IMG/VR virus record: IMGVR_UViG_3300037041_001930
DNA from: a virus
Taxonomy: Duplodnaviria; Caudoviricetes
Strand: one strand, 5' to 3'
Length of the DNA stretch: 64,000 bases
Shown: one piece after another, positions 25,317 through 58,513 of the stretch
Position numbering within the stretch: the stretch's first letter is position 1
How the letters are laid out: every line of letters starts with the position of its first letter
Notes under the pieces: generated by a model
Told to the model about the DNA's origin: nothing
Database searches by the model: none
Seen by the model: only the letters and a program-made list of their open reading frames with translations
Made by a program: the position numbers and the translations under genes

Positions 25317-25350
25317 CTTGTATTCCTTGTACGACAAGGCTAGATGGGGT

Positions 25351-36345: not shown

Positions 36346-36376
36346 CGCAGCACCTCATGCCGCACAGCCTATGAGG

Positions 36377-36393
36377 GTTGACTCCCTGTAAAG
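36377..36393. promoter_or_regulatory. Dyad operator-like site 1 (TTTACWGNNNGTCAA)
   Basis: Plus strand GTTGACTCCCTGTAAAG; the minus strand reads TTTACA-N15-TAGGCT upstream of 36345. Confidence 0.55.
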
Positions 36394-36396
36394 AGA

Positions 36397-36439
36397 CAAA
36401 ACGAGTCGAGGTCACGTCCCCGGGGAGACGTGACCTCGA
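36397..36439 (-). terminator. Intrinsic terminator after 36459..36938
   Basis: 13-bp inverted repeat tcgaggtcacgtc (36406-36418) / gacgtgacctcga (36427-36439) followed on the minus strand by CTCGTTTTGT. Confidence 0.85.
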
Positions 36440-36458
36440 TTCCTAGAATCACTTGAGA

Positions 36459-36938
36459 TTAGGGAATGAAGGCGATGGCTTCGACGGCGACATCCCAACC
36501 CACGGTTTCAGCGGCGGCGCCGGTGACCTTGAGCTTGAGGACATTGGTGTCGTTGATCAAGGCGACGACATAGGCGGCTTCACCGATGTGATCAACCACA
36601 GTGGGGGAGCCGGATTCCAACAGGGTGACTGTTGAACCCACGACCTTGACGAGGTAGCGACGGATCTCGGCGGCGACTTTGGCACCATCGGATTTGCGAG
36701 CCACGGCTTTGACTTCGATCAGGCTGACGCTGCCATCGGCGAAGATGCCTGCGGGGAGGCGTTGGTCACCGTTCTGAAAGAGTTCAGTGGCGGTGGCGTT
36801 GGTTGTGGTGCCGAGGAAGTTGAATTTCTCGACATTACGGTTTTCCAGGGCACGCTTGGTCTTGGCGCGGCCTGTACTGCGTTCGCGGGAATCCACGGGA
36901 AGGCGGAGAGCGCCGGCTTCATTGATACCTTTGGTCAT
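36459..36938 (-). CDS. Hypothetical beta-rich protein, 159 aa (possibly structural)
   Basis: CCAGGAG RBS; flanked by terminators on both sides. Confidence 0.8.
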   Translation of the reverse strand: MTKGINEAGALRLPVDSRERSTGRAKTKRALENRNVEKFNFLGTTTNATATELFQNGDQRLPAGIFADGSVSLIEVKAVARKSDGAKVAAEIRRYLVKVVGSTVTLLESGSPTVVDHIGEAAYVVALINDTNVLKLKVTGAAAETVGWDVAVEAIAFIP

Positions 36939-37032
36939 GGGAAATCTCCTGGAAGAGTTGACGAGGACGTCGGTGAAGTCCCTAGAGTAAGTGGGATCTC
37001 AGGTTGTGGAAGAGGGGTTCGGCGTCGCCAGC

Positions 37033-37064
37033 AATAAAAGGGCCCTCAGGTTTCCCTGAGGGCC
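37033..37064 (-). terminator. Intrinsic terminator
   Basis: Minus strand GGCCCTCAGG-GAAA-CCTGAGGGCC-CTTTTATT (10-bp stem, GNRA loop, U tract). Confidence 0.9.
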
Positions 37065-37136
37065 GCTCCGACACCGAAGTGTCCACCAATCTATCACTGT
37101 CGCCCAATTCACCCACCCCTGAGGACCTGGGCGACC
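37033..37136 (-). ncRNA. Candidate ~100-nt structured small RNA or attenuator leader
   Basis: Own promoter at 37142-37169; hairpin GTCGCCCA/TGGGCGAC, C(UUCG)G hairpin 37070-37083, terminator 37041-37064. Confidence 0.5.
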
Positions 37137-37141
37137 CCAGA

Positions 37142-37169
37142 AATCTACCATGGCTTGGGGATCCGACAA
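37142..37169 (-). promoter_or_regulatory. Sigma70-like promoter TTGTCG-N16-TAGATT with extended -10 (TGn)
   Basis: Directly after the nrdJ stop; predicted +1 near 37135-37136 coincides with the first hairpin. Confidence 0.55.
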
Positions 37170-37178
37170 GGCCTACTA

Positions 37179-40100
37179 TCAGGCGTGTTGTAAGGTGCAG
37201 GCTCCACCCGCACATGCCATCTCAGGTTGGGTACCCTTGGTGCCATCGTGTTCCTCGACCATCAGGGAGTAGTCGACATCACGCCAGCTCCGGGTCAAAC
37301 GTTCCCAGAGGTGGAGGTTGTTGACTTCCTTGAGGCAATAGGTCATCTGCTTCAGCGCAGCGTCACGGTCAGCCTTGCGCTCATAAGTCATCTCTACTGG
37401 GCACTGGAAGTAATTCTCTGCGAACTTCCTGGCCCTACGTATCCAATCCTTCTTGAGTTCATGGACGTGCTCATAGGCCTCGCGGATGGCATCAGGGAGT
37501 GCATCGGGATCCCCAGGATATGGAACACCATTGGCGAGAACGGCGGCTTCACCAAGCCCCATCACGGTATCACATGCCAACCAGAGATTGTTACCAAAGG
37601 CGTGGAGTCCATCTACGATGAGACCAGATGCAAAGAAGGCGCCGCGACCATAGCGCTCCAGGATCTCACTTTCCGTGCGGACCTCGCAGAACGGGGCCTG
37701 GGGGTAATCGAGATCCCCTGATGTCCCCAGGATGCTGACCCCCGTGAAGGACTCACGGTTATCGTAGATGTACCGTGCCGCGGCCTCCTCTTGGGTCTGC
37801 CGGATCGTGATCGTGTTGGAGACATTGTGGTGCAGCCAGGGCTTCACTGCTCTCGCGGGGACACTGCCAGCGGCGACCCAGTTGTCCTGGGTGAGTTTGA
37901 CGTACTCGAGCTGCTTGAGCCCATTGACCTCGCGCCGCGTCAGGGCCTCATCGGAGGCCTCGATGCAGAACGTGATCACCGCGGTGTTACCATTGGGCTC
38001 CCACACCGAGCGTTCAATGGCATCGGGATTGTGGACCTTGAAGTATTGGAAGGGGGCCTCGTTGATGTTGGCCTGGGCCCTACGGAAGTATCTCTTGGCG
38101 TGCTGGGCATGAATACCGCTAGAGGTCCCGAGCAGGCAAGACGTCGAACCCGCGGGTTTAACACATGTCGCCCGTGCAGTTGGCCGGATACCCAGACGAG
38201 GTGCGAGATGCGCGTTGACATCGAGGATGAGCTGGGCCAGGGCGCGTTGCTTCTGGGGATCAAAAGACTGTGTGGGGTTGTCCATCATCCCGGTCATGGA
38301 GACCCCGAGCAGGGCCTCACGCTTCGCAATGCACTCGCTGACATTGCCGAGGTAGTCGAACTTGGTGTACCCGGCCTGGAGTGTGCCCAGGATCGCCGCA
38401 GCGGTACACGCGAGACCCCAGTCCTTATCGGTGCGGCACGCCTTCGCGTTGACTTCACAGAGGTTGCATTGCTTGGTGAGTACGTTGTTGAACACACAAC
38501 AATGTGTGTCCGGTTCCTCTAAGCAGTAGGTATCACCTTTTCCTAAGAAATTTACTGACCGGATTATCTGGTGCTTGCCCTTGCAGCGTGGGGTGTACCC
38601 CTTAGATGTATCCAAGCGATGACACGGTATCTTCTGGCACTCAGTAATCTGGATATACCATGATGCCTCAGTCCGTTCCCCAAAGTTGGTGGCGGCATCA
38701 TTATGAAGATTGACGGAGCACAGGATTCCAACTCGGCTTAATAGAAGCTGGGCGTCGCGACAACGTGACTCGGTACCGTAAATCCGGATACCATTGCCAG
38801 CCTGGGAACCATCGGCATCAGCCCACCCCGCGATGAATGATAAGATGCTATCCGATGACCACGCGTGTAGATCACGCAAGGCGTTCGGATCTCTTTTCAA
38901 TCGTGTAGCAAAACCAACGTCGATATCAAAAACGATATCAACTGAGTCGACCCCGTATCCTGGTTTCCTGACACGCGGGCCCCGCTTGCCATCTAGTGGT
39001 AGATCAATTTTAGGACCATATAGAGTTGCCTTCGCACGCCCTTTACCGTGAAGAGGTTCCGTGTGACCATCCCCAAGTAGGAAACCCATCTCATAGGCAC
39101 AGGGTTCATCGAGCCCTGGCTGCTCCTGAAAACCACTACGGGGAACATGGATGGGGTGATCCGAGAATTGTAATAGTTTACCAGTGGGCACCTCAGAGTA
39201 TCCCTTGCCAAATCTATCTTTTACCAACCAGACATGATCCTCAGTGCAGTCGAGAAAACTGCCATCGCTGAGCTCAACTCGATAGAGCTTCCGATTACTG
39301 CCAGTGGAAAACGGTTTAGCCACGCACCACCTGGTGCCATTCCATATCTTTATCTGCTTACCGACTACATCCTTGATAGCGTGGATGCCGTCCTCAGTCA
39401 TCAGAAGCGTATCCCCGCCGACGCAGAATGCCCAACCACTGAGCTCATCGTCTTGGTTGACTATTGCGGCGTGGGTGGATCCATCATTGAAATCGACGTC
39501 AACGAGCCGACGCCCATCCTGCAGTAACTGGGTACGTGATGCGGGGTCGTTCAGGATCTCCTTGAGATCCTTCCGAGAAATCGCGGGGTACATCCCAGTT
39601 TCCACGCAGGGGTTCACCATGAGCTCCGTGCTATCCGACCACACGAACCCGGGCTCCCCGTACTGGCGACGCGCCAACATGAAGATGTCATGGAAGGCTT
39701 CCCAGGAGGTCTCACCACGGATCAGCATCGCCGAGTTATTAGAACGCGCGCGCTGTGGGTTGTCCTGCATCCAGTTCCCAGTCTTCGCATTCATCATCTC
39801 GTGGTCGTCGACACTGAACAAGCAGATCGTGGCACTGCGGCGAACCCCGCCGGCGAGGACGGCATCCGAGGCGTGCATGATGATGTCATAGACGTCGATG
39901 GGGCGGAGACGGCAGTCCTCACCATGGCAGCGAGTCAGCGCGGCATCGAGGACCCCTCTGATCTTCTCTAGGGATGCTGACAGCGGCCCAGGCCCCGGGG
40001 CCTTGCCGGCACCCGTGCTCAGACTCGAGCCCTGGTTACGGATCCGGGAGTAATCGAAGCTGACATGACTGCCCATGTAATCAGAGAAGCATCCGGGGTG

Positions 40101-40649
40101 TTGGAAGGACACCTGGGAATCATTGCCTGGTGCGGTTTCTTCCGCGAACTCGTTCATACCACTGCCAAGACATCCATAGGACGCCAGGAGGACACCAAGG
40201 GCATCCGCCCAGCCTTCAACAGAGTCGGCAACCGTGAACACCTTGATCTGATGTTTATCCACGGCGATTAACTTGGGCAGCTTGGCGACGTGGTGGAGTT
40301 GAACCGAGAACCCGGTGCCGCAGCCACAGAGCAGGAGATACAAGCACTCCTGGAAGAAGCGGGGGCGATCCGCGTAGGACCCCGAGCAGTTGAACGCACG
40401 GGCTTCCTTCCTCAGGATAGGGGAACCTCCGAACTGAAGAGCTCTCTGGGAGCCTAGAACCAAACCAGCCTTCATGGCTTCCAGACAGGTCTTCAACTCA
40501 GCTTCGATATCAAACCCTTTGTACTTCGTGCGGTGCATGTCGATGACGCGTTCAAAACTCTCACTTGGTATCTCTCGGCGATTCAGTTCAGGGATAAAGC
40601 ATCCATAAGACGCTGCGAACTTATAGGCTGCTAGGGATTGCGTTGTCAT
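37179..40649 (-). CDS. nrdJ: Class II (adenosylcobalamin-dependent, RTPR-like) ribonucleotide reductase with intein; ~837 aa after splicing
   Basis: GSQRALQFGG, FNCS, LLCGCGTGFSV, GGVRRSA, NPCVE, CNLCE, TCVKPAGSTS, C-terminal CAGGAC; start moved to ATG 40649 (GGAG RBS). Confidence 0.93.
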   Translation of the reverse strand: MTTQSLAAYKFAASYGCFIPELNRREIPSESFERVIDMHRTKYKGFDIEAELKTCLEAMKAGLVLGSQRALQFGGSPILRKEARAFNCSGSYADRPRFFQECLYLLLCGCGTGFSVQLHHVAKLPKLIAVDKHQIKVFTVADSVEGWADALGVLLASYGCLGSGMNEFAEETAPGNDSQVSFQHPGCFSDYMGSHVSFDYSRIRNQGSSLSTGAGKAPGPGPLSASLEKIRGVLDAALTRCHGEDCRLRPIDVYDIIMHASDAVLAGGVRRSATICLFSVDDHEMMNAKTGNWMQDNPQRARSNNSAMLIRGETSWEAFHDIFMLARRQYGEPGFVWSDSTELMVNPCVETGMYPAISRKDLKEILNDPASRTQLLQDGRRLVDVDFNDGSTHAAIVNQDDELSGWAFCVGGDTLLMTEDGIHAIKDVVGKQIKIWNGTRWCVAKPFSTGSNRKLYRVELSDGSFLDCTEDHVWLVKDRFGKGYSEVPTGKLLQFSDHPIHVPRSGFQEQPGLDEPCAYEMGFLLGDGHTEPLHGKGRAKATLYGPKIDLPLDGKRGPRVRKPGYGVDSVDIVFDIDVGFATRLKRDPNALRDLHAWSSDSILSFIAGWADADGSQAGNGIRIYGTESRCRDAQLLLSRVGILCSVNLHNDAATNFGERTEASWYIQITECQKIPCHRLDTSKGYTPRCKGKHQIIRSVNFLGKGDTYCLEEPDTHCCVFNNVLTKQCNLCEVNAKACRTDKDWGLACTAAAILGTLQAGYTKFDYLGNVSECIAKREALLGVSMTGMMDNPTQSFDPQKQRALAQLILDVNAHLAPRLGIRPTARATCVKPAGSTSCLLGTSSGIHAQHAKRYFRRAQANINEAPFQYFKVHNPDAIERSVWEPNGNTAVITFCIEASDEALTRREVNGLKQLEYVKLTQDNWVAAGSVPARAVKPWLHHNVSNTITIRQTQEEAAARYIYDNRESFTGVSILGTSGDLDYPQAPFCEVRTESEILERYGRGAFFASGLIVDGLHAFGNNLWLACDTVMGLGEAAVLANGVPYPGDPDALPDAIREAYEHVHELKKDWIRRARKFAENYFQCPVEMTYERKADRDAALKQMTYCLKEVNNLHLWERLTRSWRDVDYSLMVEEHDGTKGTQPEMACAGGACTLQHA
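38469..39425 (-). mobile_element. Intein with LAGLIDADG endonuclease (319 aa), C-terminal Gln
   Basis: Starts CVGGDTLLMT and ends VFNNVLTKQ before Cys+1 of CNLCE; EMGFLLGDG and FIAGWADADGS blocks; AT-richer than the flanks. Confidence 0.92.
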
Positions 40650-40704
40650 ATGACACTCCATGTAGTCGTTGGTTTTTTCGTCACAGGTGCTACATCCTGT
40701 GGGG

Positions 40705-40721
40705 GTTTACTGTCAGTCAAG
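40705..40721. promoter_or_regulatory. Dyad operator-like site 2, upstream of nrdJ
   Basis: GTTTACTGTCAGTCAAG; supplies a TTGACT -35-like hexamer on the minus strand. Confidence 0.7.
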
Positions 40722-40736
40722 TCTGGTTGTGTTGGC

Positions 40737-41021
40737 CTAAGTGCGACGTCGGGTGGGTTGTGTTGCCACGCGTTCTGTTTCCAGAATGGTTACGCGTGTT
40801 TTCAAGTCTTCCACTGAATTCAGGAGATCAACACAGAGGTCAAGGAAGGGTGCGGACTCCTTGAGTTTCTTTTTAATCGGGGTAGATGTCGAGGGGGCCC
40901 CGGGCGCGCGGACCACTGGAGTCTTCCTGTAGCCGACACCATCGCCAGCGAGCATGCGGTCGGTGGTGGGCGCGTACTCCACCGGCGTACACCGTGGAGC
41001 CGGTTTCGTTTTCTTTTTCAT
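40737..41021 (-). CDS. Hypothetical basic protein, 94 aa
   Basis: Operon-packed; C-terminal coiled coil LLNSVEDLKTRVTILE. Confidence 0.7.
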   Translation of the reverse strand: MKKKTKPAPRCTPVEYAPTTDRMLAGDGVGYRKTPVVRAPGAPSTSTPIKKKLKESAPFLDLCVDLLNSVEDLKTRVTILETERVATQPTRRRT

Positions 41022-41024
41022 GAA

Positions 41025-41219
41025 TCACCCGACGGCTGCCATTGCAGCGGCGAAAGCGGCTTGCGGGAATCTCACCGTGGCGGCGTCGAGTCCCCGAAAT
41101 CTCACGTTCACAAAATTGGGATCATCGTCGGGAGCATACCAAGTGATCTTGGTAAGATCATAGGCAGGACCATCGGCCCCATTCGGATACCAGATCTGTG
41201 GGGATGTCACAAGTGCCAT
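41025..41219 (-). CDS. 64-aa protein, free-standing copy of a repeated module
   Basis: WYPNG..AYDLTKITW..VNVRF..VRFPQAAFAAAM; homologous to 41291..41485 and to the C-terminus of 41485..44853. Confidence 0.75.
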   Translation of the reverse strand: MALVTSPQIWYPNGADGPAYDLTKITWYAPDDDPNFVNVRFRGLDAATVRFPQAAFAAAMAAVG

Positions 41220-41290
41220 ACGATTCCCTTACTCTATCGAGGTCAAAGATGGCTGGATTCTGGCAGGTCAAGTCGAGGCGCAAGTCGGGG

Positions 41291-41485
41291 TCAGAACCCA
41301 GACCCCTCAGCGGCGTCCAGCGCAGCCGCCCATGCCACGGCATCAAAGGTGACAAGCACGTTGGGCTGCGAGGCAAAGCGGACAACAACCTTGTCGGTGC
41401 CGTAGGGCTGCCACATCACGGCTTCACGCACATTGTATGTGGCACCGCCGACAACAGGAGTAAAGAAGTTATCTGTGACAGCCAT
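41291..41485 (-). CDS. 64-aa protein, free-standing copy of the same module
   Basis: FFTPVVGGATYNVREAVMW..VVVRFASQPNVLVTFDAVAWAAAL. Confidence 0.75.
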   Translation of the reverse strand: MAVTDNFFTPVVGGATYNVREAVMWQPYGTDKVVVRFASQPNVLVTFDAVAWAAALDAAEGSGF

Positions 41486-44400
41486 TATGACCTCGACTTC
41501 GACGCCTGCATGGCGGTCTCAAAAGCATTGAGATCAAAACTCACGTTGACATCAGGGGAATCAGCGAAACGTACAAGTGAAGGCGTGCTACGGTTCCAAG
41601 TCGCCACCCAATCCAGGTTATAGTACACGCTACCCCCATAGGGGTTCCACCACTGGAGACTCGAGGGCAGCGCTGCCAGGAACGTGGCGCGGGGGATGCG
41701 AAGCGGGGGATTCACTGGCATCTGGGAATCCTCGGCCATCGCCGAGTACGCCATCCAGACATCCACGTACCCCAGGGCCGGGTAATCCACATACCTCTGA
41801 ACGAAGAGCACGTTGAGCGTGGTCTGCCCAATGATGAGGTCAGGCAACGCCGAAGCTATAACAGGGCTGCCGAGGAGAGTCGGACTACTTGAACGCGAGA
41901 GGTCCCACTGGGTCAGGAACCAGGCACGACTGAAATGGATCGGGGAGTATGGGTTGCCAAAGAAGATCGCCGATATCGACTGGGTGTCGTCCTTAAACGA
42001 GACCAGCCAACGGAGATCATAGATAGCGCCATTACTGGATTCATAGAAATGTGAGCTACCAAAGATAACGTTGTGGTTGTCCCCGCGATCCTTGATACCC
42101 CCGCGCGCATACACCGGGCTCCCCGCACTGGCGTTACACCATGCTATGCCCTGAGAAGAGTTTCCTTTGATGTAGCTGCTCGAGCTCGCACCAGACCGGC
42201 TCACGAGATTCCAGGCCCCGGCGGCCTGGAGATCGAGACCCTCGATCTTGATCTGGCCACCACGCAGGGTTGCCCCGACATAGTTCAACAGTGCCGCTGA
42301 AGTCAGCGTGAGTGCACCAAAGGCGTCGAGCACCCTGGCGTGGAGATCCACACTGGACCCCGCGAGAGCCGTGAAGGCACCAGTGGTGAGTACGACATCA
42401 TTAGAAAGATCGAGAATCGTGCCGGCACCAGAGACCAGGATGGAAGGGAATGCTGCGGGGAGCCCACCGTTGATCTGGAACTGCTGACGCACCCCACCAA
42501 CGAAGTCAACTCTGGGGACTCCATTAGAGACCACGTTGACCCCGGCCCCGATGACCAGCTTCCCGGTAAACTTGGCAAGAGATGCACCTGCACCTGAATG
42601 CGGCATCGCCGCGATACCCCATCGAGTCGTACCCCCGGATCTACCGAGGGTGACATCACCATACGTGATGTCGACGACATCTGCGTTTCCAACGGGGTAA
42701 TCGAAAAAGTAATCGCTGCCGCCACCGGCGACATAGGTGTACGTGAAACTCGAGATATTCGCGATGACTCCGTCACGTGCCTGAATCTGCATGACCTTGT
42801 TACCAGATGTGCGCTTCGCGAGGAGACCCGCGATATTCACGTTTCCTGGCCCCTCGAATCGACATTCGAGATTTGCGGACGCACCAGTGGCCTCCATGGT
42901 GAAGCCACCTTGGAGGTCAACACTACCGTTGAATATGAGCCTACACAGGTTGCCCCAGAGACCCTTGAGAGTCACGGGAGACGTGAAGACGTGACCAGTG
43001 GGCACCGAGTAGATCGTGTTGCCACTGGGACCCTCACGGAACTCAATGGGGCACGTGAAGACCACACTGGCAGGGGCCGGCAGAGGAGTCGACTTCAGGG
43101 TGTCCAGGATGAGCGTGGGGGTTCCAGCAATCGTACTCCCCGACCCCGTGATCAGAGTGGGGTAGCTGGCCACACCCCCAGCTAACCGCAGATTCCCAGA
43201 CACAAGGGTGAGAACAACCCCGGTTCCAAGTGTGATCCCGAGGAGATTCGCACCAGGTCCGACAACAGTGATATTCATCAACTTCTCGGTACCACCCATG
43301 TCTAACACTGCGGAGTAGTTAAATGCGAGACGAGACGGTATCTTCTGAGAAGGCGTGGAACTGAATACCACTGAGGCCCCTGCGCAATCCACGGCCAGGA
43401 CACCGCCCCAACTATTGTTGGCATCAGTGATCGTAAACTTGGAGAAATCGAACACGTAGTTGTCGCGTCGAAGCGTGACATTGTTGTTCGCGTAATTTAT
43501 AGTTAAACCAGTTTCGACCACAGTAAGCGCGAAAGTCCATGTGAGCGCAGAGTCAATGGCAAGCCCGAAGACTTTGGAGCCCAGGGTAAGATTGCCGGTG
43601 CCCGCAGGGGAGTCACCCCCGATGAAAAAGTAATGGTTGGTGTTCAGCCCACTCGCGGTGAGCCCACCTGCGAAGGTGTTCGCCCCGGTGACATGGAAAC
43701 CGTTGTCATTCTCCATGGTGTTCTTAGTGGTCTGGGACACACAGGACAGCCCGGCCGAATAGCCGATCTCACTGCCGATGGCCCCTGACAAGTTGACCCG
43801 GCACCCCGCACTGGTCGGCATGATTATGAATGTGCGTGTCCCGGCACCATTGAGCAGCGTAATCGCACCTGTGAAATTCACAGGGCTCTGCGCTCTCACA
43901 TGGAGCTTTACAGTGCCCCCGACTTCGATGGCACCACTAAACGTGTAATTGGCACTCAAGCCCGCAGGCATCGAGATCGTAGAAGTCGTGTTGCCGATCC
44001 CCAGTGCCATGTTGGTCGCAAAGGTTCGGGTAGCTCCTGCATCGACATACCACTCGAAGTAGGAGCCCTCGTAGAGGGAGATCTTTCCGGTTCCAAAGGA
44101 GTGAGTAGTCGTGGCGCCAGAGTAACTCAAGGAGAGTTGAACCCCAGCGGCGACTACTGTATTCCGGTGAGCCGGGAATGTCGTCGAACTCGAGTGCGCG
44201 TAAGCCCCACCATTGACCAGGATGTCATGTGCACCGGTCACAGAACCCGTGGTGAGCAGGAATCCCGAGCTCGTGTTGTCGATCGTGAAATCCGTCTTCA
44301 GCAGAAGCGGAGCCGAGATCGTAACAGTGTTGGATCCCGAGACCTGGTAGTACCGGGAGATCGAGAGGTTGCCACCATTCGATGCCGCCAGGGTCTTTTC

Positions 44401-44853
44401 ACCACTGGAGTCACTGGTGATGGTCAATATCGTGGTGTCCCCGTAGAAGGTGAATACCTTGGTCCCCGAGTTCGTGAGATGTAACTTGGTGATGACTTTA
44501 CCAGCGAAGTCGTAAGTAGCCGTGGATTCAATGACCCATCTACCCGTGGCATCGCTTACAGTCACCCCACTGGATAACGCGAGAGCGGTGACCCCAGCAG
44601 CCATAACTGCGAAATCAAAGGTGCCTAAGCTGAGGGTGCCCGTGTAACCCGTGAAGACCGCAGTGTTGACCGTGAGATTCGCACTCAGGGTACACGCATC
44701 ATTGTTCCCCGCACCACTGCCATCAAAACGGATGTCATCGGCGGCAAGAGAGCCCGCGGCGGCCGCAGTGGTGCCCCCGATGTCCGTGGTGTAGTTCTGA
44801 CGCTTATTCGCGTCGGAGTCGCCGACTTTGTTGTGCCAATAAAGGGTGGCCAT
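41485..44853 (-). CDS. Beta-helix tailspike/adhesin-like protein, 1122 aa, with C-terminal repeated modules
   Basis: N-terminal MATLYW..DDIRFDG..GYTGTL; G/T/S-rich beta-helix repeats such as VTGANTFAGGLT and LSGAIG (autotransporter-passenger-like). Confidence 0.7.
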   Translation of the reverse strand: MATLYWHNKVGDSDANKRQNYTTDIGGTTAAAAGSLAADDIRFDGSGAGNNDACTLSANLTVNTAVFTGYTGTLSLGTFDFAVMAAGVTALALSSGVTVSDATGRWVIESTATYDFAGKVITKLHLTNSGTKVFTFYGDTTILTITSDSSGEKTLAASNGGNLSISRYYQVSGSNTVTISAPLLLKTDFTIDNTSSGFLLTTGSVTGAHDILVNGGAYAHSSSTTFPAHRNTVVAAGVQLSLSYSGATTTHSFGTGKISLYEGSYFEWYVDAGATRTFATNMALGIGNTTSTISMPAGLSANYTFSGAIEVGGTVKLHVRAQSPVNFTGAITLLNGAGTRTFIIMPTSAGCRVNLSGAIGSEIGYSAGLSCVSQTTKNTMENDNGFHVTGANTFAGGLTASGLNTNHYFFIGGDSPAGTGNLTLGSKVFGLAIDSALTWTFALTVVETGLTINYANNNVTLRRDNYVFDFSKFTITDANNSWGGVLAVDCAGASVVFSSTPSQKIPSRLAFNYSAVLDMGGTEKLMNITVVGPGANLLGITLGTGVVLTLVSGNLRLAGGVASYPTLITGSGSTIAGTPTLILDTLKSTPLPAPASVVFTCPIEFREGPSGNTIYSVPTGHVFTSPVTLKGLWGNLCRLIFNGSVDLQGGFTMEATGASANLECRFEGPGNVNIAGLLAKRTSGNKVMQIQARDGVIANISSFTYTYVAGGGSDYFFDYPVGNADVVDITYGDVTLGRSGGTTRWGIAAMPHSGAGASLAKFTGKLVIGAGVNVVSNGVPRVDFVGGVRQQFQINGGLPAAFPSILVSGAGTILDLSNDVVLTTGAFTALAGSSVDLHARVLDAFGALTLTSAALLNYVGATLRGGQIKIEGLDLQAAGAWNLVSRSGASSSSYIKGNSSQGIAWCNASAGSPVYARGGIKDRGDNHNVIFGSSHFYESSNGAIYDLRWLVSFKDDTQSISAIFFGNPYSPIHFSRAWFLTQWDLSRSSSPTLLGSPVIASALPDLIIGQTTLNVLFVQRYVDYPALGYVDVWMAYSAMAEDSQMPVNPPLRIPRATFLAALPSSLQWWNPYGGSVYYNLDWVATWNRSTPSLVRFADSPDVNVSFDLNAFETAMQASKSRS

Positions 44854-44863
44854 TGTGCTGGCC

Positions 44864-45490: not shown

Positions 45491-45546
45491 GTTGGCACCC
45501 CTATCGATTCGAGAGCTTATGTACGCCCCGGCGTCAGCAAGACCGC

Positions 45547-46056: not shown

Positions 46057-46066
46057 GGGTGGGCTC

Positions 46067-48544: not shown

Positions 48545-48550
48545 ATCAGA

Positions 48551-50995: not shown

Positions 50996-50996
50996 A

Positions 50997-51305
50997 TCAA
51001 CTCCTTCGAGTCTTTTTCTTCTTGGCGTGCTCGCGGCGTGCGCGTGCCTTGATAACGCTGCTACGCTCTCTCAGGATCTTGAGCTGGCGGGCCTTCTCGG
51101 CCTCACGTGCCTCCAGGATTCGCTTGCGCCTGAGCGCACGGGCTTTCTCCAAGTGGTCATCACGGCTACCGGGGTGATCCCCGGTGGCCTTCTCATAGGC
51201 CGCACGTTCCTCGGGGGTCAGGATTCCCGGGGCTGCCTTGGGTTTCTCGGTCTCCTCGAGAACTGATGCCGTCGCGGCATCGATGACAGCGCTGAGGTCC
51301 TTCAT
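50997..51305 (-). CDS. Basic coiled-coil hypothetical protein, 102 aa
   Basis: ATGA-coupled; R/K/E-rich. Confidence 0.7.
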   Translation of the reverse strand: MKDLSAVIDAATASVLEETEKPKAAPGILTPEERAAYEKATGDHPGSRDDHLEKARALRRKRILEAREAEKARQLKILRERSSVIKARARREHAKKKKTRRS

Positions 51306-51796
51306 GACTTCACCTTCTTAGCCTTCGCCTTCTTCGACTTCGCAGTCTCGACACTGGAGACTTTCTTTTTCTTACTGGCTGCGGGCTGCTGAGATTTCAC
51401 TGTCTTCAACTTTTCCAGGACCTCCTTGGTAGCCATTGTCAGAGTTTTGACGATATCCTGGGTACCCTTGAATGTCGCCACCGCGGTACTCTTCAGGGCA
51501 TCGATGTGGGCCTGGGCAACCATGTTGTCCCCTTTGCGCGTGACCACCCATTGTATCCCCGCGATGGTGAGGCGCTGGGCTTCAGTCTCCACAGAACTGG
51601 CATTACCAGGGATCAGGCTCATGAGGCGTGACTGGGCCTTCAAGTAGAGCTCGCCCACGCCGCGTGGGGTCCTGATGGGGTTGATGGCTATGACTTTAGC
51701 GGTCTGGACGACGACGTTTAACATCGCGTCGATCTCCTTCATACGCTCGTAATGAGCCTGGCTGGCCGGGCTGGGGCATGCGGATTCCGATGACAT
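51302..51796 (-). CDS. Hypothetical protein (~164 aa) with Lys-rich tail
   Basis: Start moved to ATG 51796 (GAGGAG RBS), leaving 51797-51864 intergenic. Confidence 0.75.
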   Translation of the reverse strand: MSSESACPSPASQAHYERMKEIDAMLNVVVQTAKVIAINPIRTPRGVGELYLKAQSRLMSLIPGNASSVETEAQRLTIAGIQWVVTRKGDNMVAQAHIDALKSTAVATFKGTQDIVKTLTMATKEVLEKLKTVKSQQPAASKKKKVSSVETAKSKKAKAKKVKS

Positions 51797-51830
51797 ATAG
51801 TCTCCTCTGGGCGTGAGCCCATGTGGGTGG

Positions 51831-51868
51831 GTTGACTGACAGTAAACCATGACTCCGTGCGGTGTCAA
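51831..51868 (-). promoter_or_regulatory. Sigma70-like promoter TTGACA-N16-TTTACT (TGn) overlapped by dyad site 3 (51831-51847)
   Basis: -35 at 51863-51868, -10 at 51841-51846; plus strand GTTGACTGACAGTAAAC is 16/17 identical to the reverse complement of site 2. Confidence 0.7.
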
Positions 51869-52146
51869 GTCGGTGGGGTGTCCGGGATATCCTTGATGGC
51901 CTGACGGGTGCGCGCGATTCCACCGGTAGCCGCGATAAACAAGTTCTGGATGTAATCCGTGCTCGCGCGTTCCTTGAACTCCTGTGCAGTTATTCCAGGG
52001 GTCCCCCCGAGCTGGGCAAGCGAGTTCCGCAAAGTCAGGGAGACCTGGTGGAGCTCAGCTGCACAGTTGATCACATTCTGAATCTCCGGTGGCAACTTGG
52101 TTGCCTGTGCCGGCTTCGAGGAGTTCAGCATTATCGTGTCCATCAT
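51865..52146 (-). CDS. Hypothetical helical protein, 93 aa
   Basis: AAGGGA RBS, operon-packed. Confidence 0.65.
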   Translation of the reverse strand: MMDTIMLNSSKPAQATKLPPEIQNVINCAAELHQVSLTLRNSLAQLGGTPGITAQEFKERASTDYIQNLFIAATGGIARTRQAIKDIPDTPPT

Positions 52147-52154
52147 ATAGTCCC

Positions 52155-53900
52155 TTAATCAATTGGTTTGAGCCCGAAGCGTTGGAGAACATCCCCAATG
52201 CTCGATGTACGCTGAACTCTAAGTGCCCAGTACCCGGCGAGAAGACGCTCGCGGTGGCGCCAGGGGTGGACCTGCAGGGGGCACTTCCCCAAGGCGACCA
52301 CGGGCACCCCAATCATGGCGGCCTCGATCAACGAGGTCGAATTGATTCCGACGACGACCTCGCTGACACGGGCGGCGTCATAGAAGTCCTTGACGACCTC
52401 GCGGCCCTCAATGCTGGCCCGTGCTGACCTCCAGGGCCGCTGGGACCCCGACTTGGGATGCGGGCGCACCACGATGTCATGACTCGGGTACATCGCGGCG
52501 ACGTGTTCAACAAACTCGCCCATGTTGCGGTAGGCACAGTGATACAAGATCTGGGAGTCATTCTCGATCTGGAGGGGGACGAGGACTCGCGATTTCTTGG
52601 GTTCCAGGGGATACTTGGCGCGGAGTTCAGAGACCCCCTCGCGGTATGCCTTGAGGTCGGCGTCGGTAACCCAGCCCAGGGGGCGCATGAGCATCGAATC
52701 CCCAGCGAAGCCATCGAGGTCGACGAGGAATGTTGAAGCCTGCGGGGCCACCCCCCACTCGAAGAAGGCATAGGGGATCTTCATGGCCTCACAGAGCGCC
52801 TTGGCGTTGCGACCATTGTGCTGGGCGCCATTCCAGATCACGACGAAGGCGGCCCTCTTGAGATCCCCGGCGACCTTGAAGAACTCGGTGTCGATGCCAA
52901 TGAAGGCGTAGGGGCGCCCCAGGGACTCCGCCCAGCGCTTCACGAAGCCCTGGCACTCGCTGCCATTCCAGCCAATGTAAACAATGGCGCCGTCATCGGC
53001 ACGGCGACCCGGGGCCTCCTCGGGCTCACATTCGCCCTGGGGGACCTCGTGGAGGCTCTCCTTGCCCGGCCAGGGATCAATGGGGGCCAAGACGGCATCG
53101 GAGGCCCTGACCTCGTAACCCATGGTGGCCCTGGTGTACACCGAGGTGAGCTCGCGTTCCAAGCGATCCGCCCACTTCGAGGGGGTCACAATCATGGTGG
53201 CACGGGTGACCCGGGCATGAAGCACGGCGACCCCGGCGTGGTGGAGGTAGAACCTCTGCGGCGACATCCAGGGACTCAGGGGTTCCTCGACGAACCCTGT
53301 GGGATTCCTGCCGAGCTCACGGTTGAGATGGTTGACCTGAAAGGGGAACTCGGCGATGACGCGCTGGGCAAAAATGACGTCATGGTTACGCATGACACCC
53401 TGGGGATACGTGATGCCCGCGTCTACAATGGCGGCGCGGCGGAAGAACGCGGCGTTATACCTCAGCGGGAACTTGCCCTCCAGGGACTGCCGGGTCACCG
53501 AATAATCGCCCCAGACCACGGAGTTGCGGACCACGGCTTCACTCGCCTTGAGCTCATGGGTCCACAACACGATGTCAGGAGACTTCTCGGCTTCCTGTTC
53601 GAGGACTGCGATACGGACTTCTTCGGAGAAATCCCTGTCGCCGTGGACCAAGATGAAGTCAGCTCTTGAGCGTGCGATGAGGAAGTTGAGGGCGGCACCG
53701 GGGCCAATGCGGTACGCACTCGTGAAGACCTCAATCCTGGAGTCAATCCCGCGTTCCTCCTCGATGAGCTCAGCGGTCTCCGCTGTGGCGGCATCACTGA
53801 ACACTAGGACGCGGTTGACCCCGCGAATCTTGAGGATGTTCTGGAGGGTGGCCTCGATGTGGGAGTTGTCATGGGTGACTAAGACGACGTCAGTGGTCAT
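52155..53900 (-). CDS. GT2-like glycosyltransferase fused to a capsule-polysaccharide-modification (KpsS/Capsule_synth-like) domain, 581 aa
   Basis: DVVLVTHD..VLVFSDA..ADFILVHGD; VLVPLQIENDSQI, VVRPHP, VVGINSTSLIEAAMIGVPVVALG. Confidence 0.8.
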   Translation of the reverse strand: MTTDVVLVTHDNSHIEATLQNILKIRGVNRVLVFSDAATAETAELIEEERGIDSRIEVFTSAYRIGPGAALNFLIARSRADFILVHGDRDFSEEVRIAVLEQEAEKSPDIVLWTHELKASEAVVRNSVVWGDYSVTRQSLEGKFPLRYNAAFFRRAAIVDAGITYPQGVMRNHDVIFAQRVIAEFPFQVNHLNRELGRNPTGFVEEPLSPWMSPQRFYLHHAGVAVLHARVTRATMIVTPSKWADRLERELTSVYTRATMGYEVRASDAVLAPIDPWPGKESLHEVPQGECEPEEAPGRRADDGAIVYIGWNGSECQGFVKRWAESLGRPYAFIGIDTEFFKVAGDLKRAAFVVIWNGAQHNGRNAKALCEAMKIPYAFFEWGVAPQASTFLVDLDGFAGDSMLMRPLGWVTDADLKAYREGVSELRAKYPLEPKKSRVLVPLQIENDSQILYHCAYRNMGEFVEHVAAMYPSHDIVVRPHPKSGSQRPWRSARASIEGREVVKDFYDAARVSEVVVGINSTSLIEAAMIGVPVVALGKCPLQVHPWRHRERLLAGYWALRVQRTSSIGDVLQRFGLKPID

Positions 53901-54742
53901 ATCAGGCCTCCGACACCGTAGTCGATGGCAGCGAAGTTAATCTCCCCTCGTGGCGCCGTGGTATCGATGCCGAGGCCATGCCAGATCTCAGTGGTGACCT
54001 CGAAGGTGCCCTTGTCACCCATGGTGATCCGTGGCCATACCGCATCAGCGATGACGACGTGGTGACCACAGAAGCCCCCGCGGAGCACACATGTCTTATG
54101 GGGCAACGCGGAGGCCTTAGGAGCCCCGACGACAACCCTGGCGCCGACGTCACGCGCCAGCAGGGGATTCGCGGACAGCCTGGCCTTAATGGCAGCGCTG
54201 AGCAGCCATGCCTCGGGGTACACGACGAGATCACATGCGGAGACCATCACCGAGGTGACCTGCTCACCTGGCTTACTGGCATCGAGAAGGGTGGCACGCG
54301 AGATCACGGAGTCGAGAACCCCGAGCACCCTGGTGTCCACTGCGAATGCAAGAGGAGTGAGGATATCACGGGTGTACCAGTCCCAGAAGGATTCACCTGT
54401 CTTCAGGAGATCCGCGATTGATGACTTCGCGGTCACCGGGGTGCGCAGGATCGAGAACTTTACATCTCCCTTTACACCGGGTTCGACGACATTGGCGACG
54501 AGGACGTCCTTGGGGTTCGCGGCGAAGTGTGCCCTGGCAGCGTCGACATTGGCAGCAGGGGCATCCAGGGCGACACCGAAGACCTCGGCGAGGCTGCGGC
54601 GTGTCGGGGGCCACCACTTCATCGTGGTCGCCACGTTCTCCAACCACTCCAGGGTCCAGACCCCGAGGATGGCGTTGAATGCCACGGGGTCGGACTTCAC
54701 GGAGTCCAGGAGACCAACAGGGGATCCAGTGAATGGAGTCAT
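53897..54742 (-). CDS. Hypothetical protein, possible diverged HK97-fold capsid paralogue, 281 aa
   Basis: SSIADLLKTGESFWDWYTRDILTPLAFAVDTRVLG resembles the HK97 spine helix; paralogous to 54739..56106. The CDS is solid; the fold call is weak. Confidence 0.45.
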   Translation of the reverse strand: MTPFTGSPVGLLDSVKSDPVAFNAILGVWTLEWLENVATTMKWWPPTRRSLAEVFGVALDAPAANVDAARAHFAANPKDVLVANVVEPGVKGDVKFSILRTPVTAKSSIADLLKTGESFWDWYTRDILTPLAFAVDTRVLGVLDSVISRATLLDASKPGEQVTSVMVSACDLVVYPEAWLLSAAIKARLSANPLLARDVGARVVVGAPKASALPHKTCVLRGGFCGHHVVIADAVWPRITMGDKGTFEVTTEIWHGLGIDTTAPRGEINFAAIDYGVGGLI

Positions 54743-56106
54743 GAGTTCCTCGTCAAACGGAGACCACGGAAGGCGTCAGCGAAATCGATGACGCATGTAT
54801 AACTCAGGGTGACTTCAAGAATGCCGGATTTCGCTGCCTTTGTCTTCTCAGCCTTGGCTACCTTGAGTTCCTTTTCCTCAGCGCAGGCACGAACAAGGGC
54901 CTCCTCGAGCTCAAGAGACTTGTCACTCCTGGCCTGGGCGACCTCAGTGGCGAACTCGGGAAGCACGGGTTCCTGAGGTGTCTTCAAGAAGTCCTCAAGG
55001 GCCTGCTTGGCTGTTGCCGCCTTGATCACGGCGGCGCTATGGGCTTTCGTGGCCTCGTCGGCCGCAATCTTCCCGATGTCCTTGATGCGGATGCCATAGG
55101 CCCAGTGGTCTTCCTTGAACACACCGCCAGGACGCTTGAACACCGCGATGCCATGTGGCAGCGGTGTCGGGTCTTCCACGGCGACCTGGGCTGCCTTGAG
55201 ATCTCCGATGACTTCACCATTGGCGAGACCAATGGCAGCGTACATCTTGGAGTCCATGAGCACGGCATCGTTATCCAGGGTCAGCCTGACGAGAACATCG
55301 TGCTCGGGCCTCGTGGTGTCCACAAAGATGGTGTGGCCATCCAACGCGATATCCAGGTAATCCGCGATGCCCCTGCAGAGATGGTTGGCGAACCATTGCC
55401 GGAATGTCACACCTTGATTCGCGATATCACCGAGATCGACGACAGCCTTGACCACGAATATCTTGGCAGTCCCGTTCTCAGCGATGCCCTCGTGGCCATC
55501 GATGAAGTCGTGACGGAGCCCGGAGAGCTCAGGGATCACGGTGCCCTGGATCTCGGGTTTCCAGAGGCGTTGAAGACAAGAGTTCTCGAGCATCCACCAC
55601 GCCGCGAACTCCCTGCAGGTCTGGAACCCCATGAGGGCGTCCTCGAGGACCGCGGCGTAGAACGCAGCATTGAGCTCCCGGGCACGCTCGGGCCCCGGAC
55701 TCGCGAGTTCCACTGGTGGTACGTACCTCGGGGGTGCCGAGAGCGAATCGATATGAGCACCAATGGTCTTCCAATCCGGGGCTGCCACGATGCCGTCGAG
55801 CTCGGGATCCTTGATGTAATTCACTGAGTTGTTTAATACGAGGTTGCCATTGGGGAGCCGAGTCATCAGGATCTTGCCGGCATTGGCACGCGCCGCCGCA
55901 ATGGCCTGCCTGAGCTCCATGGTCATCGGGAGACCATCGGGCAACGAAGCCGGGTCAACGATCTGGGCCTTGTCGACGACATGAAGCCCTTTGGCCGCGA
56001 TGTGATTCTGTCGCCATTGCCCCAGGATCTCATCCCGTTTGTGGGCAAACGAGGATCCCAAGTTGATCTCAAAACCGCCTGAGACCATGTCGCCTTCGCG
56101 CAGCAT
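54739..56106 (-). CDS. Hypothetical protein, possible diverged HK97-fold capsid paralogue with C-terminal coiled coil, 455 aa
   Basis: VDLGDIANQGVTFRQWFANHLCRGIADYLDIAL aligns with 53897..54742; CCAGGAG RBS. Confidence 0.45.
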   Translation of the reverse strand: MLREGDMVSGGFEINLGSSFAHKRDEILGQWRQNHIAAKGLHVVDKAQIVDPASLPDGLPMTMELRQAIAAARANAGKILMTRLPNGNLVLNNSVNYIKDPELDGIVAAPDWKTIGAHIDSLSAPPRYVPPVELASPGPERARELNAAFYAAVLEDALMGFQTCREFAAWWMLENSCLQRLWKPEIQGTVIPELSGLRHDFIDGHEGIAENGTAKIFVVKAVVDLGDIANQGVTFRQWFANHLCRGIADYLDIALDGHTIFVDTTRPEHDVLVRLTLDNDAVLMDSKMYAAIGLANGEVIGDLKAAQVAVEDPTPLPHGIAVFKRPGGVFKEDHWAYGIRIKDIGKIAADEATKAHSAAVIKAATAKQALEDFLKTPQEPVLPEFATEVAQARSDKSLELEEALVRACAEEKELKVAKAEKTKAAKSGILEVTLSYTCVIDFADAFRGLRLTRNS

Positions 56107-56145
56107 AAACTCTCCTGGTTGGGGTGTGCCCTTACTGTGACCAGG

Positions 56146-56162
56146 GTTTACTGTGCGTCAAG
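56146..56162. promoter_or_regulatory. Dyad operator-like site 4
   Basis: GTTTACTGTGCGTCAAG, intergenic, upstream of 56106. Confidence 0.7.
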
Positions 56163-56173
56163 TCTGCTGGGGG

Positions 56174-57115
56174 TCAGCCTTCTTCATCGGAGTCTTCGGA
56201 TTCGCCCTTACCCATCGTCTTGTATAACAAGGCGGCGAGGAGAGCTGCGGCGCCGCCACCAATGGCGATCTTGCCCCAGGGCAGCCCGGGTTCATCTGGC
56301 TTCGGTTTCCCGATGACATTGGAGACCCCGGTGATCGCGGCATCGCGGACACCACGATACGGGGCGCCACCCCATGAGGGTGCATTGGGATCCCCTGGCT
56401 TCGATGACAACTTGTCGCCAGTGGTCTGCAGAGCATTGAGAGCTGGAGTCGACGCGAGACCTGCGGCACCTGCGATGACTGCATTGCGATCCGCGGAGCG
56501 TTCTTTGCCAGGGGCCTGGTTGGCCTTGATGGCATCCACGGTCTGCTGACCAGTGTCCACTAGGGACTGGGCCTGTTCGATGGGGGCTGTCTTCGCTTTA
56601 AGCGCGGCCTCATTGGCGGCGTGATCCGCGACTGCCTTGGCATCGATCATGGGATCCTTGCCCTGGGCCTTCCCGGCGTCCCATACCAAGTCGTGCTGCT
56701 GTTTGTTTCTTTGTGCCACCGGGGTCGCCAGGGCTGCGGCGTATTCAGGACTGTACTTGATGCCGTTGGCATCAAGGGCAGCCAGAGATTTGTCGTGGAC
56801 ATCTTGCTCGGGGAGAACATCCTTGGGGGACTTGATGCCTGCCCTGCCGAGTTCGACTTTAAGATTGTCTTTGGCACCCCGGAGGAACCTCTGGGGCTGC
56901 TTGAGTGCGCGACCTCGGTTGAACGCACTTGCGGCCCCCATGACACCCTGAGTACCCAGGGCAGTGATCGCCGCTGAGTTGGCTTCGTCATTGGTGGCCC
57001 CGGCGACCTGATTGGCGCCATAGGCGAGCCCCGTAGGAGCCAAGGTGCGGAGAGCCTTGCCGCCAAGGCTAGGAAACTGGGCTTGGGTCCACCACTTCGG
57101 TACTGGGTTTGGCAT
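56174..57115 (-). CDS. Membrane-anchored hypothetical protein (~313 aa)
   Basis: Start moved to ATG 57115 (AGGAGG RBS); C-terminal GKIAIGGGAAALLAALLY followed by an acidic tail. Confidence 0.75.
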   Translation of the reverse strand: MPNPVPKWWTQAQFPSLGGKALRTLAPTGLAYGANQVAGATNDEANSAAITALGTQGVMGAASAFNRGRALKQPQRFLRGAKDNLKVELGRAGIKSPKDVLPEQDVHDKSLAALDANGIKYSPEYAAALATPVAQRNKQQHDLVWDAGKAQGKDPMIDAKAVADHAANEAALKAKTAPIEQAQSLVDTGQQTVDAIKANQAPGKERSADRNAVIAGAAGLASTPALNALQTTGDKLSSKPGDPNAPSWGGAPYRGVRDAAITGVSNVIGKPKPDEPGLPWGKIAIGGGAAALLAALLYKTMGKGESEDSDEEG

Positions 57116-57749
57116 GACGTGTCCTCCTGCTCCTGAGTCGGCGACCATCGGGTCGGTAAAATCTCAGGATATGATAGACGCGCCCCGAGGATAGCCCTGA
57201 GGCCTGGGCGACCTTCCTGAGACTCTTGAGATCCGCGTAGAGGGTGTGCACTGCTTTGATGTCCTCGGCTTCACCAGGAAGCAGCGCCGGCCTCTTGAGG
57301 CCAAACTTCTGGGCGACATAGAAGATGGTCGCGGGTGCCTTCCCCAGCTTCTCGGCGATGTCAGACAAACGGTCTCCAGCGTCGAGACGTTCTTGCATCC
57401 ACTTCAGGATCCCGGGATCCATGTTCCGTTTCGTGAACGCATACTTGGCGTGGAACCCAGGACCATGCTTGTAATACGCGGCGCGAACACTGGAGAGCTT
57501 GTGAGCCGTGCGCACCGAGATGACCTCGAGGTCCTGAGTCTTCGCGAACTCGGCTGCCCATTCATCTGGGGACATCGGCTTGGGGCGCGGACGCTTGGGT
57601 TTCGAGGGCTTCGATCTCCGGAGATCGCTGGGCAACGGCGCCGGCTTCGAGAGGTCAATGAACCCCTTGGGGATCTCTGAGAAGGCAACCACAGGGGCGT
57701 ATCGGATCCTGTCGCCCTGCGGACTCGGTCTTCCGATATCAATGGTCAT
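57069..57749 (-). CDS. Multi-HTH DNA-binding protein, 226 aa
   Basis: RLSDIAEKLGKAPATIFYVAQKFGL and SLRKVAQASGLSSGRVYHIL. Confidence 0.7.
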   Translation of the reverse strand: MTIDIGRPSPQGDRIRYAPVVAFSEIPKGFIDLSKPAPLPSDLRRSKPSKPKRPRPKPMSPDEWAAEFAKTQDLEVISVRTAHKLSSVRAAYYKHGPGFHAKYAFTKRNMDPGILKWMQERLDAGDRLSDIAEKLGKAPATIFYVAQKFGLKRPALLPGEAEDIKAVHTLYADLKSLRKVAQASGLSSGRVYHILRFYRPDGRRLRSRRTRHAKPSTEVVDPSPVS

Positions 57750-57750
57750 C

Positions 57751-58059
57751 TCACCACTTCCCCAGTGGGCACTTGGATTCCGGGATCATGGTGAACTTGC
57801 TGACAAAGCAGTTGCACTTGGCACAGCGGCGGGCCCTGACTGGCGCTGCCACCGGTGATGACTCCACGCACTCCGAGCATTTGGCTAGGCGGATCAAGAT
57901 GGTGCCTTGATCCGCGTGTCCTGGCCGCGGGGGTAGCGACTGCTGCTGCTGCTGGGGTAGTGGAGGTGCCACCACAGAACTCACGGCGAGGACCGCCTTG
58001 GTGATCGGACCCGCGTTAGACGGATTCTGGCCCCACGGGGGCTGTGTTGTCGCCGGCAT
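57751..58059 (-). CDS. Cys-rich small protein (DUF6171-like, ...CPLGKW)
   Basis: RLAKCSEC...CAKCNCFV...KCPLGKW. Confidence 0.7.
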   Translation of the reverse strand: MPATTQPPWGQNPSNAGPITKAVLAVSSVVAPPLPQQQQQSLPPRPGHADQGTILIRLAKCSECVESSPVAAPVRARRCAKCNCFVSKFTMIPESKCPLGKW

Positions 58060-58082
58060 TAGTGTTACCTCGTAATGGGGGT

Positions 58083-58478
58083 TTAATCTTTTGGATGCGC
58101 GCCTGTGAGCTCAGGAGGCCTTGGATTCTTGATGTCGTTATCTGCGATGACATCTGGGTTCTGGGGTTTCTGCAGGACTCGCGAGCAGAGTCCCGGCGGT
58201 GTCGGCAGTATGCTCTTCTGCGTTTCCCGGAGAACCCGAGATTCTTCCTCAGATAGTGTGCGCGGTTTTGTCTTCTCCGCGCTCTCGAGATACCGCGTGT
58301 AGTCCTCAGTGGTCTCGATAGCCCTGAGCATGGGGTACACGACGCCGATCTCACGCCCGGACTTGATGCCATCTCCAATGGCCTGCCTGGCCAGGATCAG
58401 AAGCATCTGGAGCTCCTTGAACGTCGGGGCACGAGGAGGGGTCATCTTTGGCATCTCAGGGGGAGGTGTGGGTGTCAT
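58083..58478 (-). CDS. Hypothetical protein, 131 aa
   Basis: Preceded by a dyad site; fills the minus-strand gap. Confidence 0.65.
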   Translation of the reverse strand: MTPTPPPEMPKMTPPRAPTFKELQMLLILARQAIGDGIKSGREIGVVYPMLRAIETTEDYTRYLESAEKTKPRTLSEEESRVLRETQKSILPTPPGLCSRVLQKPQNPDVIADNDIKNPRPPELTGAHPKD

Positions 58479-58496
58479 GGCTGCAAGGATGCCGGG

Positions 58497-58513
58497 GTTT
58501 ACTGGGGGTCAAG
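58497..58513. promoter_or_regulatory. Dyad operator-like site 5
   Basis: GTTTACTGGGGGTCAAG, intergenic, upstream of 58478. Confidence 0.7.

Follow-up and report, generated by a model that had tools for sequence, protein, structure and literature searches.

Does the short pseudo-palindromic sequence that recurs upstream of operons in the phage record IMGVR_UViG_3300037041_001930 (Duplodnaviria; Caudoviricetes; here G000) belong to the promoters themselves, to a regulator that acts on them, or to both? The record is 171,559 bp long and about 79% complete, and nearly all of its genes lie on the minus strand from about 20 kb onward. Bases 18590-82589 of it form the stretch of 64,000 nucleotides that is called the window below. 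In this window an earlier note, made from the letters alone, had described five copies of the element as a regulon probably read by a phage helix-turn-helix (HTH) protein. The motif is the predicted core of a phage promoter family that has at least ten members, probably 14 or more, and that heads minus-strand operons outside the main virion block. The reading favoured here, to which we give a probability of about one half, is that these promoters carry an overlaid operator of a phage-encoded HTH regulator, with an XRE-type protein as the preferred candidate.

An exact search of the window for TTTACWGNNNGTCAA gives five matches, compared with 0.00 in 100 dinucleotide-preserving shuffles (Table 1). 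They are where the earlier note had placed them: each falls between a minus-strand stop codon and the next minus-strand start in the table of open reading frames, at the head of an operon and over core promoter hexamers, and both orientations occur. The number five describes the window and not the phage. When the inner bases are freed (TTTAC-N5-GTCAA), ten sites are found in the whole record, spread over more than 110 kb, and a looser pattern (TTKAC-N5-GTMAA) returns the same ten sites and no others. All ten are intergenic. A weight-matrix scan adds at least four conserved variant sites with one mismatch. One of these lies at 25350-25364, so the statement that the first 35 kb are free of the motif holds for exact matches only.

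In the gene direction, eight of the exact sites read TTGAC-N5-GTAAA and two (sites 1 and 3 of the window) are inverted. The general form of the dyad is TTGACT-N3-AGTAAA, a 15-bp pseudo-palindrome with unlike halves that agree at five of six consensus positions; the near-perfect 17-bp palindrome stressed earlier is found in two copies only. The half-sites are 9-10 bp apart centre to centre, i.e. one helical turn. In a crude gene map, intergenic sequence makes up about 8% of the DNA, and apart from T-runs its most enriched words are AGTAAAC and GTAAACC. The motif is the sole strongly enriched intergenic word in the record, and a de novo search of the same record for a second class of intergenic motif gave nothing comparable.

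What stands downstream of the motif suggests promoters. A hexamer of the form nAnnnT is found 15-17 bp past the upstream half, in the gene direction, at eight of the ten sites, compared with a background of 0.115 per position set (a binomial estimate of about 1e-6 by our own arithmetic). In the reverse direction this is the case at only one of seven normally oriented sites. The -10-like hexamers of the normally oriented sites are CAGGAT, CACAGT, CATCCT, GATCAT, CAGAAT, TAGGCT and TACGTT. The matching -35-like sequence TTGAC is present in all ten sites, with TTTACA or TTTACC used in the gene direction at two. The overlap with -35-like hexamers had thus been seen correctly, but the -10 hexamers, described earlier as weak, are significant and conserved, so that the sites are first of all a predicted promoter family. 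Other layouts were considered and ruled out. A sigma-54-type -24/-12 arrangement would need the GG/GC that these sites lack, a class II activator box centred at -41.5 has, in our reading, no -10 at the matching distance, and divergent promoters in general are excluded by the rarity of a -10 in the TTTAC direction of the normally oriented sites.

Table 1. Motif sites and associated features. Positions are those of the window unless a contig is named; promoter elements are predicted.
Feature	Position (strand)	Layout	Context
Exact matches of TTTACWGNNNGTCAA	36378-36392 (-), 40706-40720 (+), 51832-51846 (-), 56147-56161 (+), 58498-58512 (+)		
Site 1	36366..36392 (-)	inverted; TTTACA 36392..36387 as -35, GTCAA half in spacer, N15, TAGGCT 36371..36366 as -10	33 nt before the start codon (ATG) of the 248-aa gene (35599..36345), then XRE gene
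XRE/Cro-type HTH_3 protein (P0002)	35345..35602 (-)	85 aa; HTH_3, E 3.3e-10	second gene of site-1 operon; its start is overlapped by 4 nt by the 248-aa gene; only HTH_3 gene in record
Intrinsic terminator	36406..36439 (-)	15-pair stem and T-run	ends upstream operon just before site 1
Site 2	40694..40720 (-)	TTGACT 40720..40715 as -35, AGTAAA in spacer, N15, CAGGAT 40699..40694 as -10	upstream of the 1160-aa ribonucleotide reductase gene (37179..40661)
Site 3	51839..51868 (-)	separate TTGACA 51868..51863, N18, TACTGT 51844..51839; dyad 51832-51846 over -10 and start region	upstream of a gene starting near 51799 and glycan genes
Site 4	56134..56161 (-)	TTGACG 56161..56156, N16, CACAGT 56139..56134	upstream of a 455-aa gene (54739..56106)
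Site 5	58476..58512 (-)	TTGACC 58512..58507, N15, CATCCT 58491..58486, 7 nt, ATG 58478..58476	operon of a 131-aa gene and the triple-HTH gene
Triple-HTH protein (P0001)	57069..57749 (-)	226 aa; three tandem three-helix HTH modules	site-5 operon
Variant site	25350..25364 (-)	one mismatch; minus strand TTGACGCTCAGTGAA, then TAGCCT at 16 bp, AAGGAA, ATG	virion block
Sigma-like protein	L078:1483-2547 (-), i.e. G001 about 88.5 kb	354 aa; disordered N-terminus, then regions 2-4; weak Sigma70_r4 match	

Comparison with a relative supports this view of the sites. The record IMGVR_UViG_3300032236_001859 (G001; 216,043 bp, with terminal repeats) is syntenic with G000 and about 80% identical to it, and includes 47 kb that G000 lacks. 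Nine orthologous sites are found there in the same orientations, and when the sequences are aligned on the motif, TTGAC and GTAAA agree at 90 of 90 positions. Identity is 87% in the N5, 74% in the 20 nt upstream and 92% in the 20 nt downstream, and the best-conserved part is the motif together with about 40 bp downstream of it. At the variant site in the virion block, a 26-nt island is fully conserved between flanks that are 73% identical to those of the relative. At two loci homology between the two phages begins exactly at cTTGAC, and at the upstream edge of two sites, contigs of other strains either break off or continue in different sequence: at site 2 one strain has 633 unrelated letters swapped in from 40723, and at site 5 homology to both G001 and a third strain stops at the upstream edge of the motif (loose end 58513). 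As conservation starts at the -35 and runs downstream, the sites have the appearance of promoter modules.

Such mosaic junctions at the motif edge show recombination at these sites, in line with descent of all sites from a single mobile promoter cassette that is spread by recombination and has no regulator. Alternatively, the motif could be the site of a dimeric host transcription factor, as its layout of 5+5+5 bases is near that of FNR/CRP-type boxes. We regard both as very unlikely. Past about 20 bp the flanks of the sites have nothing in common, whereas none of the ten defining bases varies over ten sites and nine orthologues, and invariant bases amid unlike flanks argue for selection and not for recent copying. 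No known host box fits either; FNR boxes have a 4-bp gap. The conserved early-promoter cassettes known as PeSL in T4-type phages are found at module boundaries and consist of ordinary sigma-70 promoters of the host type, with a spacer of 17 bp. They resemble the present sites in that repeated promoter sequences coincide with mosaic junctions between strains, but PeSL cassettes are not known to have an inverted-repeat operator.

The dyad is placed on the promoters in three different ways: with the TTGAC half as the -35, with the TTTAC half as the -35, or over the -10 and +1. The second layout is seen at site 1 and at genome position 164929, where TTTACC-N15-TAGAGT is aimed at a plus-strand gene of 614 aa. 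These inverted sites have full TAGGCT and TAGAGT hexamers, the best -10s of the family, exactly 15 bp from the TTTAC half, and the layout and -10 hexamer of site 1 are the same in G001. The third layout is that of site 3, where, as the earlier note had it, the motif covers the -10 and +1 of a TTGACA-N18-TACTGT promoter; no -10 is found at 15-17 bp from either half of this dyad. The dyad also lies over the -10/+1 at genome positions 130626 (TTGACT-N16-CACTAT) and 86636 (TTGCAT-N15-TACTCT). In G001, the sites of this register keep their hexamers and dyads and have 3-4 substitutions in the spacers between; at site 3, for example, TTGACA and the dyad are retained and the spacer has three substitutions.

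In a more distant relative, IMGVR_UViG_3300033412_000002 (G009; 74% complete), the second half of the dyad is separable from the promoter. Here 18 promoters of the form ACAAT-N4-TTGACT-N15-17-TAcaGT are found, compared with 0.10 expected. A hexamer nAnnnT stands at 15-17 bp in 12-13 of these 18, with a mode at 15 bp, often as TACAGT; there is none at 12, 13, 18 or 19 bp. Only 4 of the 18 TTGACT promoters have the AGTAAA half, and one of these full dyads heads the operon with the only XRE gene of G009. Because the promoter class exists both with and without the second half, and because the register of the dyad varies, the dyad is most likely an operator that is overlaid on core promoter elements. 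The pseudo-palindrome TTGACT-N3-AGTAAA would then be bound by a phage-encoded HTH regulator. Bound across the -35 and the spacer, or at site 3 across the -10 and +1, this regulator would block RNA polymerase, and about ten operons could be switched off together in a Cro-like manner, including the operon of the regulator itself.

The favoured candidate for the reader of the dyad is the XRE protein encoded in the operon of site 1, where the earlier note had placed it. There is exactly one HTH_3 gene in each of G000, G001 and G009. In the relative G008, which is 95% complete, there is none, and G008 is also without any TTGAC-type motif. A full dyad stands at the head of the XRE gene's operon in both G000 and G009. 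The G009 homologue (37-38% identical) is in a plus-strand operon that is headed by TTGACTACGAGTAAA-N6-TATCGT and adjoins a tyrosine integrase. The nearest solved relatives of the XRE protein are generic (a designed HTH, SinR and the Xre regulator of ICEBs1). A prediction of its homodimer scored 0.16 (mark 0.42), which is evidence neither way. Of the homologues outside IMG/VR three were found; one, at 66% identity, comes from a contig of 814 bp in which the upstream DNA is coding, and is uninformative. In G009 (L137) a 444-aa tyrosine integrase has the XRE operon and a pair of divergent promoters as its neighbours, at about 43.3-48.9 kb. No integrase was found in G000 or G001, and G009 may be temperate.

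Several points weigh against this reading. Each exact site consists of one TTGAC half and one TTTAC half, and no site with two halves of the same type is found in G000, G001, G007 or G044. A symmetric homodimer site does not predict this asymmetry, and it cannot be explained by a need for TTGAC at the -35, because two sites use TTTAC there. The recognition helix of the XRE protein is of the commonest type in its family, so that its sequence alone says nothing about specificity, and the link between XRE gene and motif comes from three related lineages only. The three layouts of the dyad were assigned after the data had been seen, i.e. post hoc. The spacers are mostly 15-16 bp, the mode being 15 bp in G000 as well as in G009, rather than the 17 +/- 1 bp typical of primary sigma factors; such a mode would not be usual with the primary sigma factor of a host, and a generic sigma-70 scan with a 16-18-bp spacer called none of the sites. 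Finally, a polymerase of the phage lineage with its sigma-like factor might read the whole motif.

The strict pairing of a G half with a T half would suit a monomer with two different reading heads, and the triple-HTH protein P0001 has been considered as such a reader. Two of its HTH modules would lie in successive major grooves, on TTGAC and GTAAA, as in MarA-type or paired-domain proteins on two-part sites, and the protein could be an activator or a repressor. Its three tandem modules fit this picture, its gene belongs to the site-5 operon and has a counterpart in G001, and its weak structural matches are to HTH domains in two parts (the Pax paired domain and Tc3 transposase, E 0.13 or worse). 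This is nevertheless an improbable reading. Both halves are made up of a single word in inverted repetition, and a dimer fits this better than tandem heads do; no homologue is found in G009 at E <=1e-3 despite four full dyads there, although this is weak evidence given the incomplete state of that genome. No significant match to a fold or family was obtained: the predicted fold (mean pLDDT 69.6) has no significant neighbour in the PDB, the best being at E 0.13, and only 17 relatives are detectable among 1.84 billion representatives.

The last of the points listed against the favoured reading leads to a rival that we consider possible, if tentative. Here the whole TTGACT-N3-AGTAAAcc block together with nAnnnT would be recognised by an RNA polymerase of the phage that works with a sigma-like factor of its own. 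Such an enzyme may be carried in the virion and would transcribe the early operons; there would be no separate regulator, and the near-symmetry of the motif would be incidental. A sigma-like protein of 354 aa is encoded in G001 in the part that is missing from G000, and models of sigma-70 regions 2 and 4 found no sigma domain in G000. Homologues of this protein carry Sigma70_r3 and score as FliA/SigB/SigF-like; the homologue in G009 is 47% identical. The 15-bp mode of the spacers fits alternative sigma factors better than the primary one. The uniqueness of the motif among the intergenic words also agrees with this rival, as does its restriction to one lineage, other motifs being found in G008, G020 and G041. 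In addition, canonical sigma-70 patterns with a 16-18-bp spacer are rarer than in shuffles: between 35000 and 64000 of the window there are 2 compared with 8.0 (sd 2.9), and 1 compared with 3.3 (sd 1.8). The abundant proteins in virions of Arash, a related phage of Salmonella, include a sigma factor and subunits of the polymerase (PMC10585845).

A directional element should, however, fail when it is inverted. At the inverted sites the -10 nevertheless stands on the TTTAC side, and at site 3 and two variants it is covered by the dyad. The AGTAAA half is absent from 14 of the 18 promoters in G009 and is thus dispensable for that promoter class, and the virion-block genes, including those of the polymerase, are without the motif. 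A phage holoenzyme may use these promoters, but this leaves the inverted and shifted dyads unexplained. A combination of both ideas, in which the block and the nAnnnT at 15 bp are read by the fused-and-split polymerase of the family with a divergent sigma-like factor, and a Cro-like XRE protein times the shut-off, is likewise possible, if tentative. If it were true, it would give the first promoter consensus for one uncharacterised but widespread group of transcription machines in jumbo phages. The sigma-like gene is found in 56 large viral contigs of IMG/VR. Among 37 genomes that carry this gene, the exact motif is present in the closest lineages only. Knowing which enzyme reads the promoters would tell whether the phage has any need of the host polymerase.

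In kind, the favoured arrangement of a promoter family with an overlaid operator belongs to a known class, the textbook promoter overlapped by a pseudo-palindromic operator. In lambdoid phages (lambda, 434, P22), the operators of Cro and CI are pseudo-palindromes of 14-17 bp over the -35 or -10 that are bound by a dimer of a small HTH protein, and in lambda they have a consensus and a non-consensus half. The present sites agree with these in the spacing of the half-sites by one turn, in the overlap with the promoter and in having a candidate gene for an HTH dimer within a controlled operon. They differ in being dispersed single sites in a phage record without an integrase, where lambdoid phages cluster two or three operators in a temperate switch, and in that the difference between the halves is invariant here and variable there. 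In mycobacteriophage L5, the repressor gp71 brings about global silencing of the genome by binding stoperators, asymmetric 13-bp sites (GGTGGMTGTCAAG) that number about 30 genome-wide, are locked in orientation, block elongation and are not promoters. Common to both are asymmetric sites, numerous and dispersed over short intergenic gaps, and a single phage repressor (a candidate in our case), but the sites described here coincide with promoter hexamers and are found in both orientations.

The likeness to the controller (C) proteins of restriction-modification (R-M) systems is closer in some respects. A precedent is C.PvuII, a small dimer of the XRE type that represses by binding a GACT-N3-AGTC box, the upstream half of which contributes to the -35; the regulator is about 80 aa long and autoregulates, and the controlled promoter gives a leaderless mRNA (PMC2175313). 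Shared features are the XRE-type HTH, the GACT-N3-AGT(C/A) repeat with its upstream half in a TTGACT-like -35, the regulator gene in a box-headed operon, and a putative leaderless mRNA from one promoter (site 5). On the other hand, C-box systems have a doublet of boxes with a conserved 4-nt linker, where each promoter here has a single box, and the second half is AGTA here, the last base being A and not C. About 10-14 operons carry the motif, compared with one in C systems, R-M genes are not involved, and nothing here corresponds to the activation that a distal box provides there. There is no C protein among the solved-structure matches of the XRE protein at E <=0.1, and its similarity to solved C proteins does not exceed that to SinR or ImmR-type proteins. 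The likeness to C proteins therefore seems to be one in the manner of working and not one of membership.

The mRNA from site 5 is probably leaderless, because the ATG of the 131-aa gene follows 7 nt after the -10 and no Shine-Dalgarno sequence is present. In G001 the -10 hexamer and the ATG of this site are unchanged, with three substitutions on each side.

As regards the other targets named in the earlier note, the glycan genes downstream of site 3 are present, and a match to ribonucleotide reductases in general is found downstream of site 2 (PHROG 367, E 3.5e-80). The capsid-like pair finds no support in Pfam or PHROG. The 1160-aa reductase protein is itself unusual. Its PHROG 367 match is in three stretches only, the best at residues 730-996; there is no Pfam match at 1e-3 but a faint primase-like stretch at residues 388-533; and only residues 732-1157 are common to G008. 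The protein may be a fusion or contain an inserted element.

A blastn search with 7.9 kb against a phage collection gave no match. An IMG/VR scan with CTTGACTGNNAGTAAAC returned 51 stretches, nearly all of which are single chance matches, and only the 216-kb relative has several copies. One metatranscriptome run gave short contigs of low depth. For this lineage of uncultured phages of about 216 kb, from freshwater and sediment, the motif would provide a first transcription map, with the starts of about 10-14 operons, a terminator and one mRNA that is probably leaderless.

A second dispersed palindrome of 17 bp, GTCTC-N7-GAGAC (mostly AGTCTCCAGCGTCGAGACT), occurs 11 times in G000 and 12 times in G001, compared with about 0.5-0.6 expected, and was not found in G009 or G008. 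In the window its copies are at 11440, 25520, 51345-51361 and 57372-57388, and seven more are elsewhere in the record. Some copies are in coding DNA, and one stands before a T-run that adjoins the variant dyad at genome position 167605.

Other repeated words are found in the relatives. In G008 (L143-L152, 57-143 kb), GGTCAGATCTGG occurs 17 times just before minus-strand start codons, and nine leaders have the form GATTC-hairpin-GAGGA. In G041 (L171-L179), the intergenic word CAAGGATAAAAT recurs 11 times. At the very start of the G000 record, 18.5 kb before the window (genome 69-400), there are sixteen tandem copies of a 21-bp unit, CCACTGGGTAAGTGGGATGAC.

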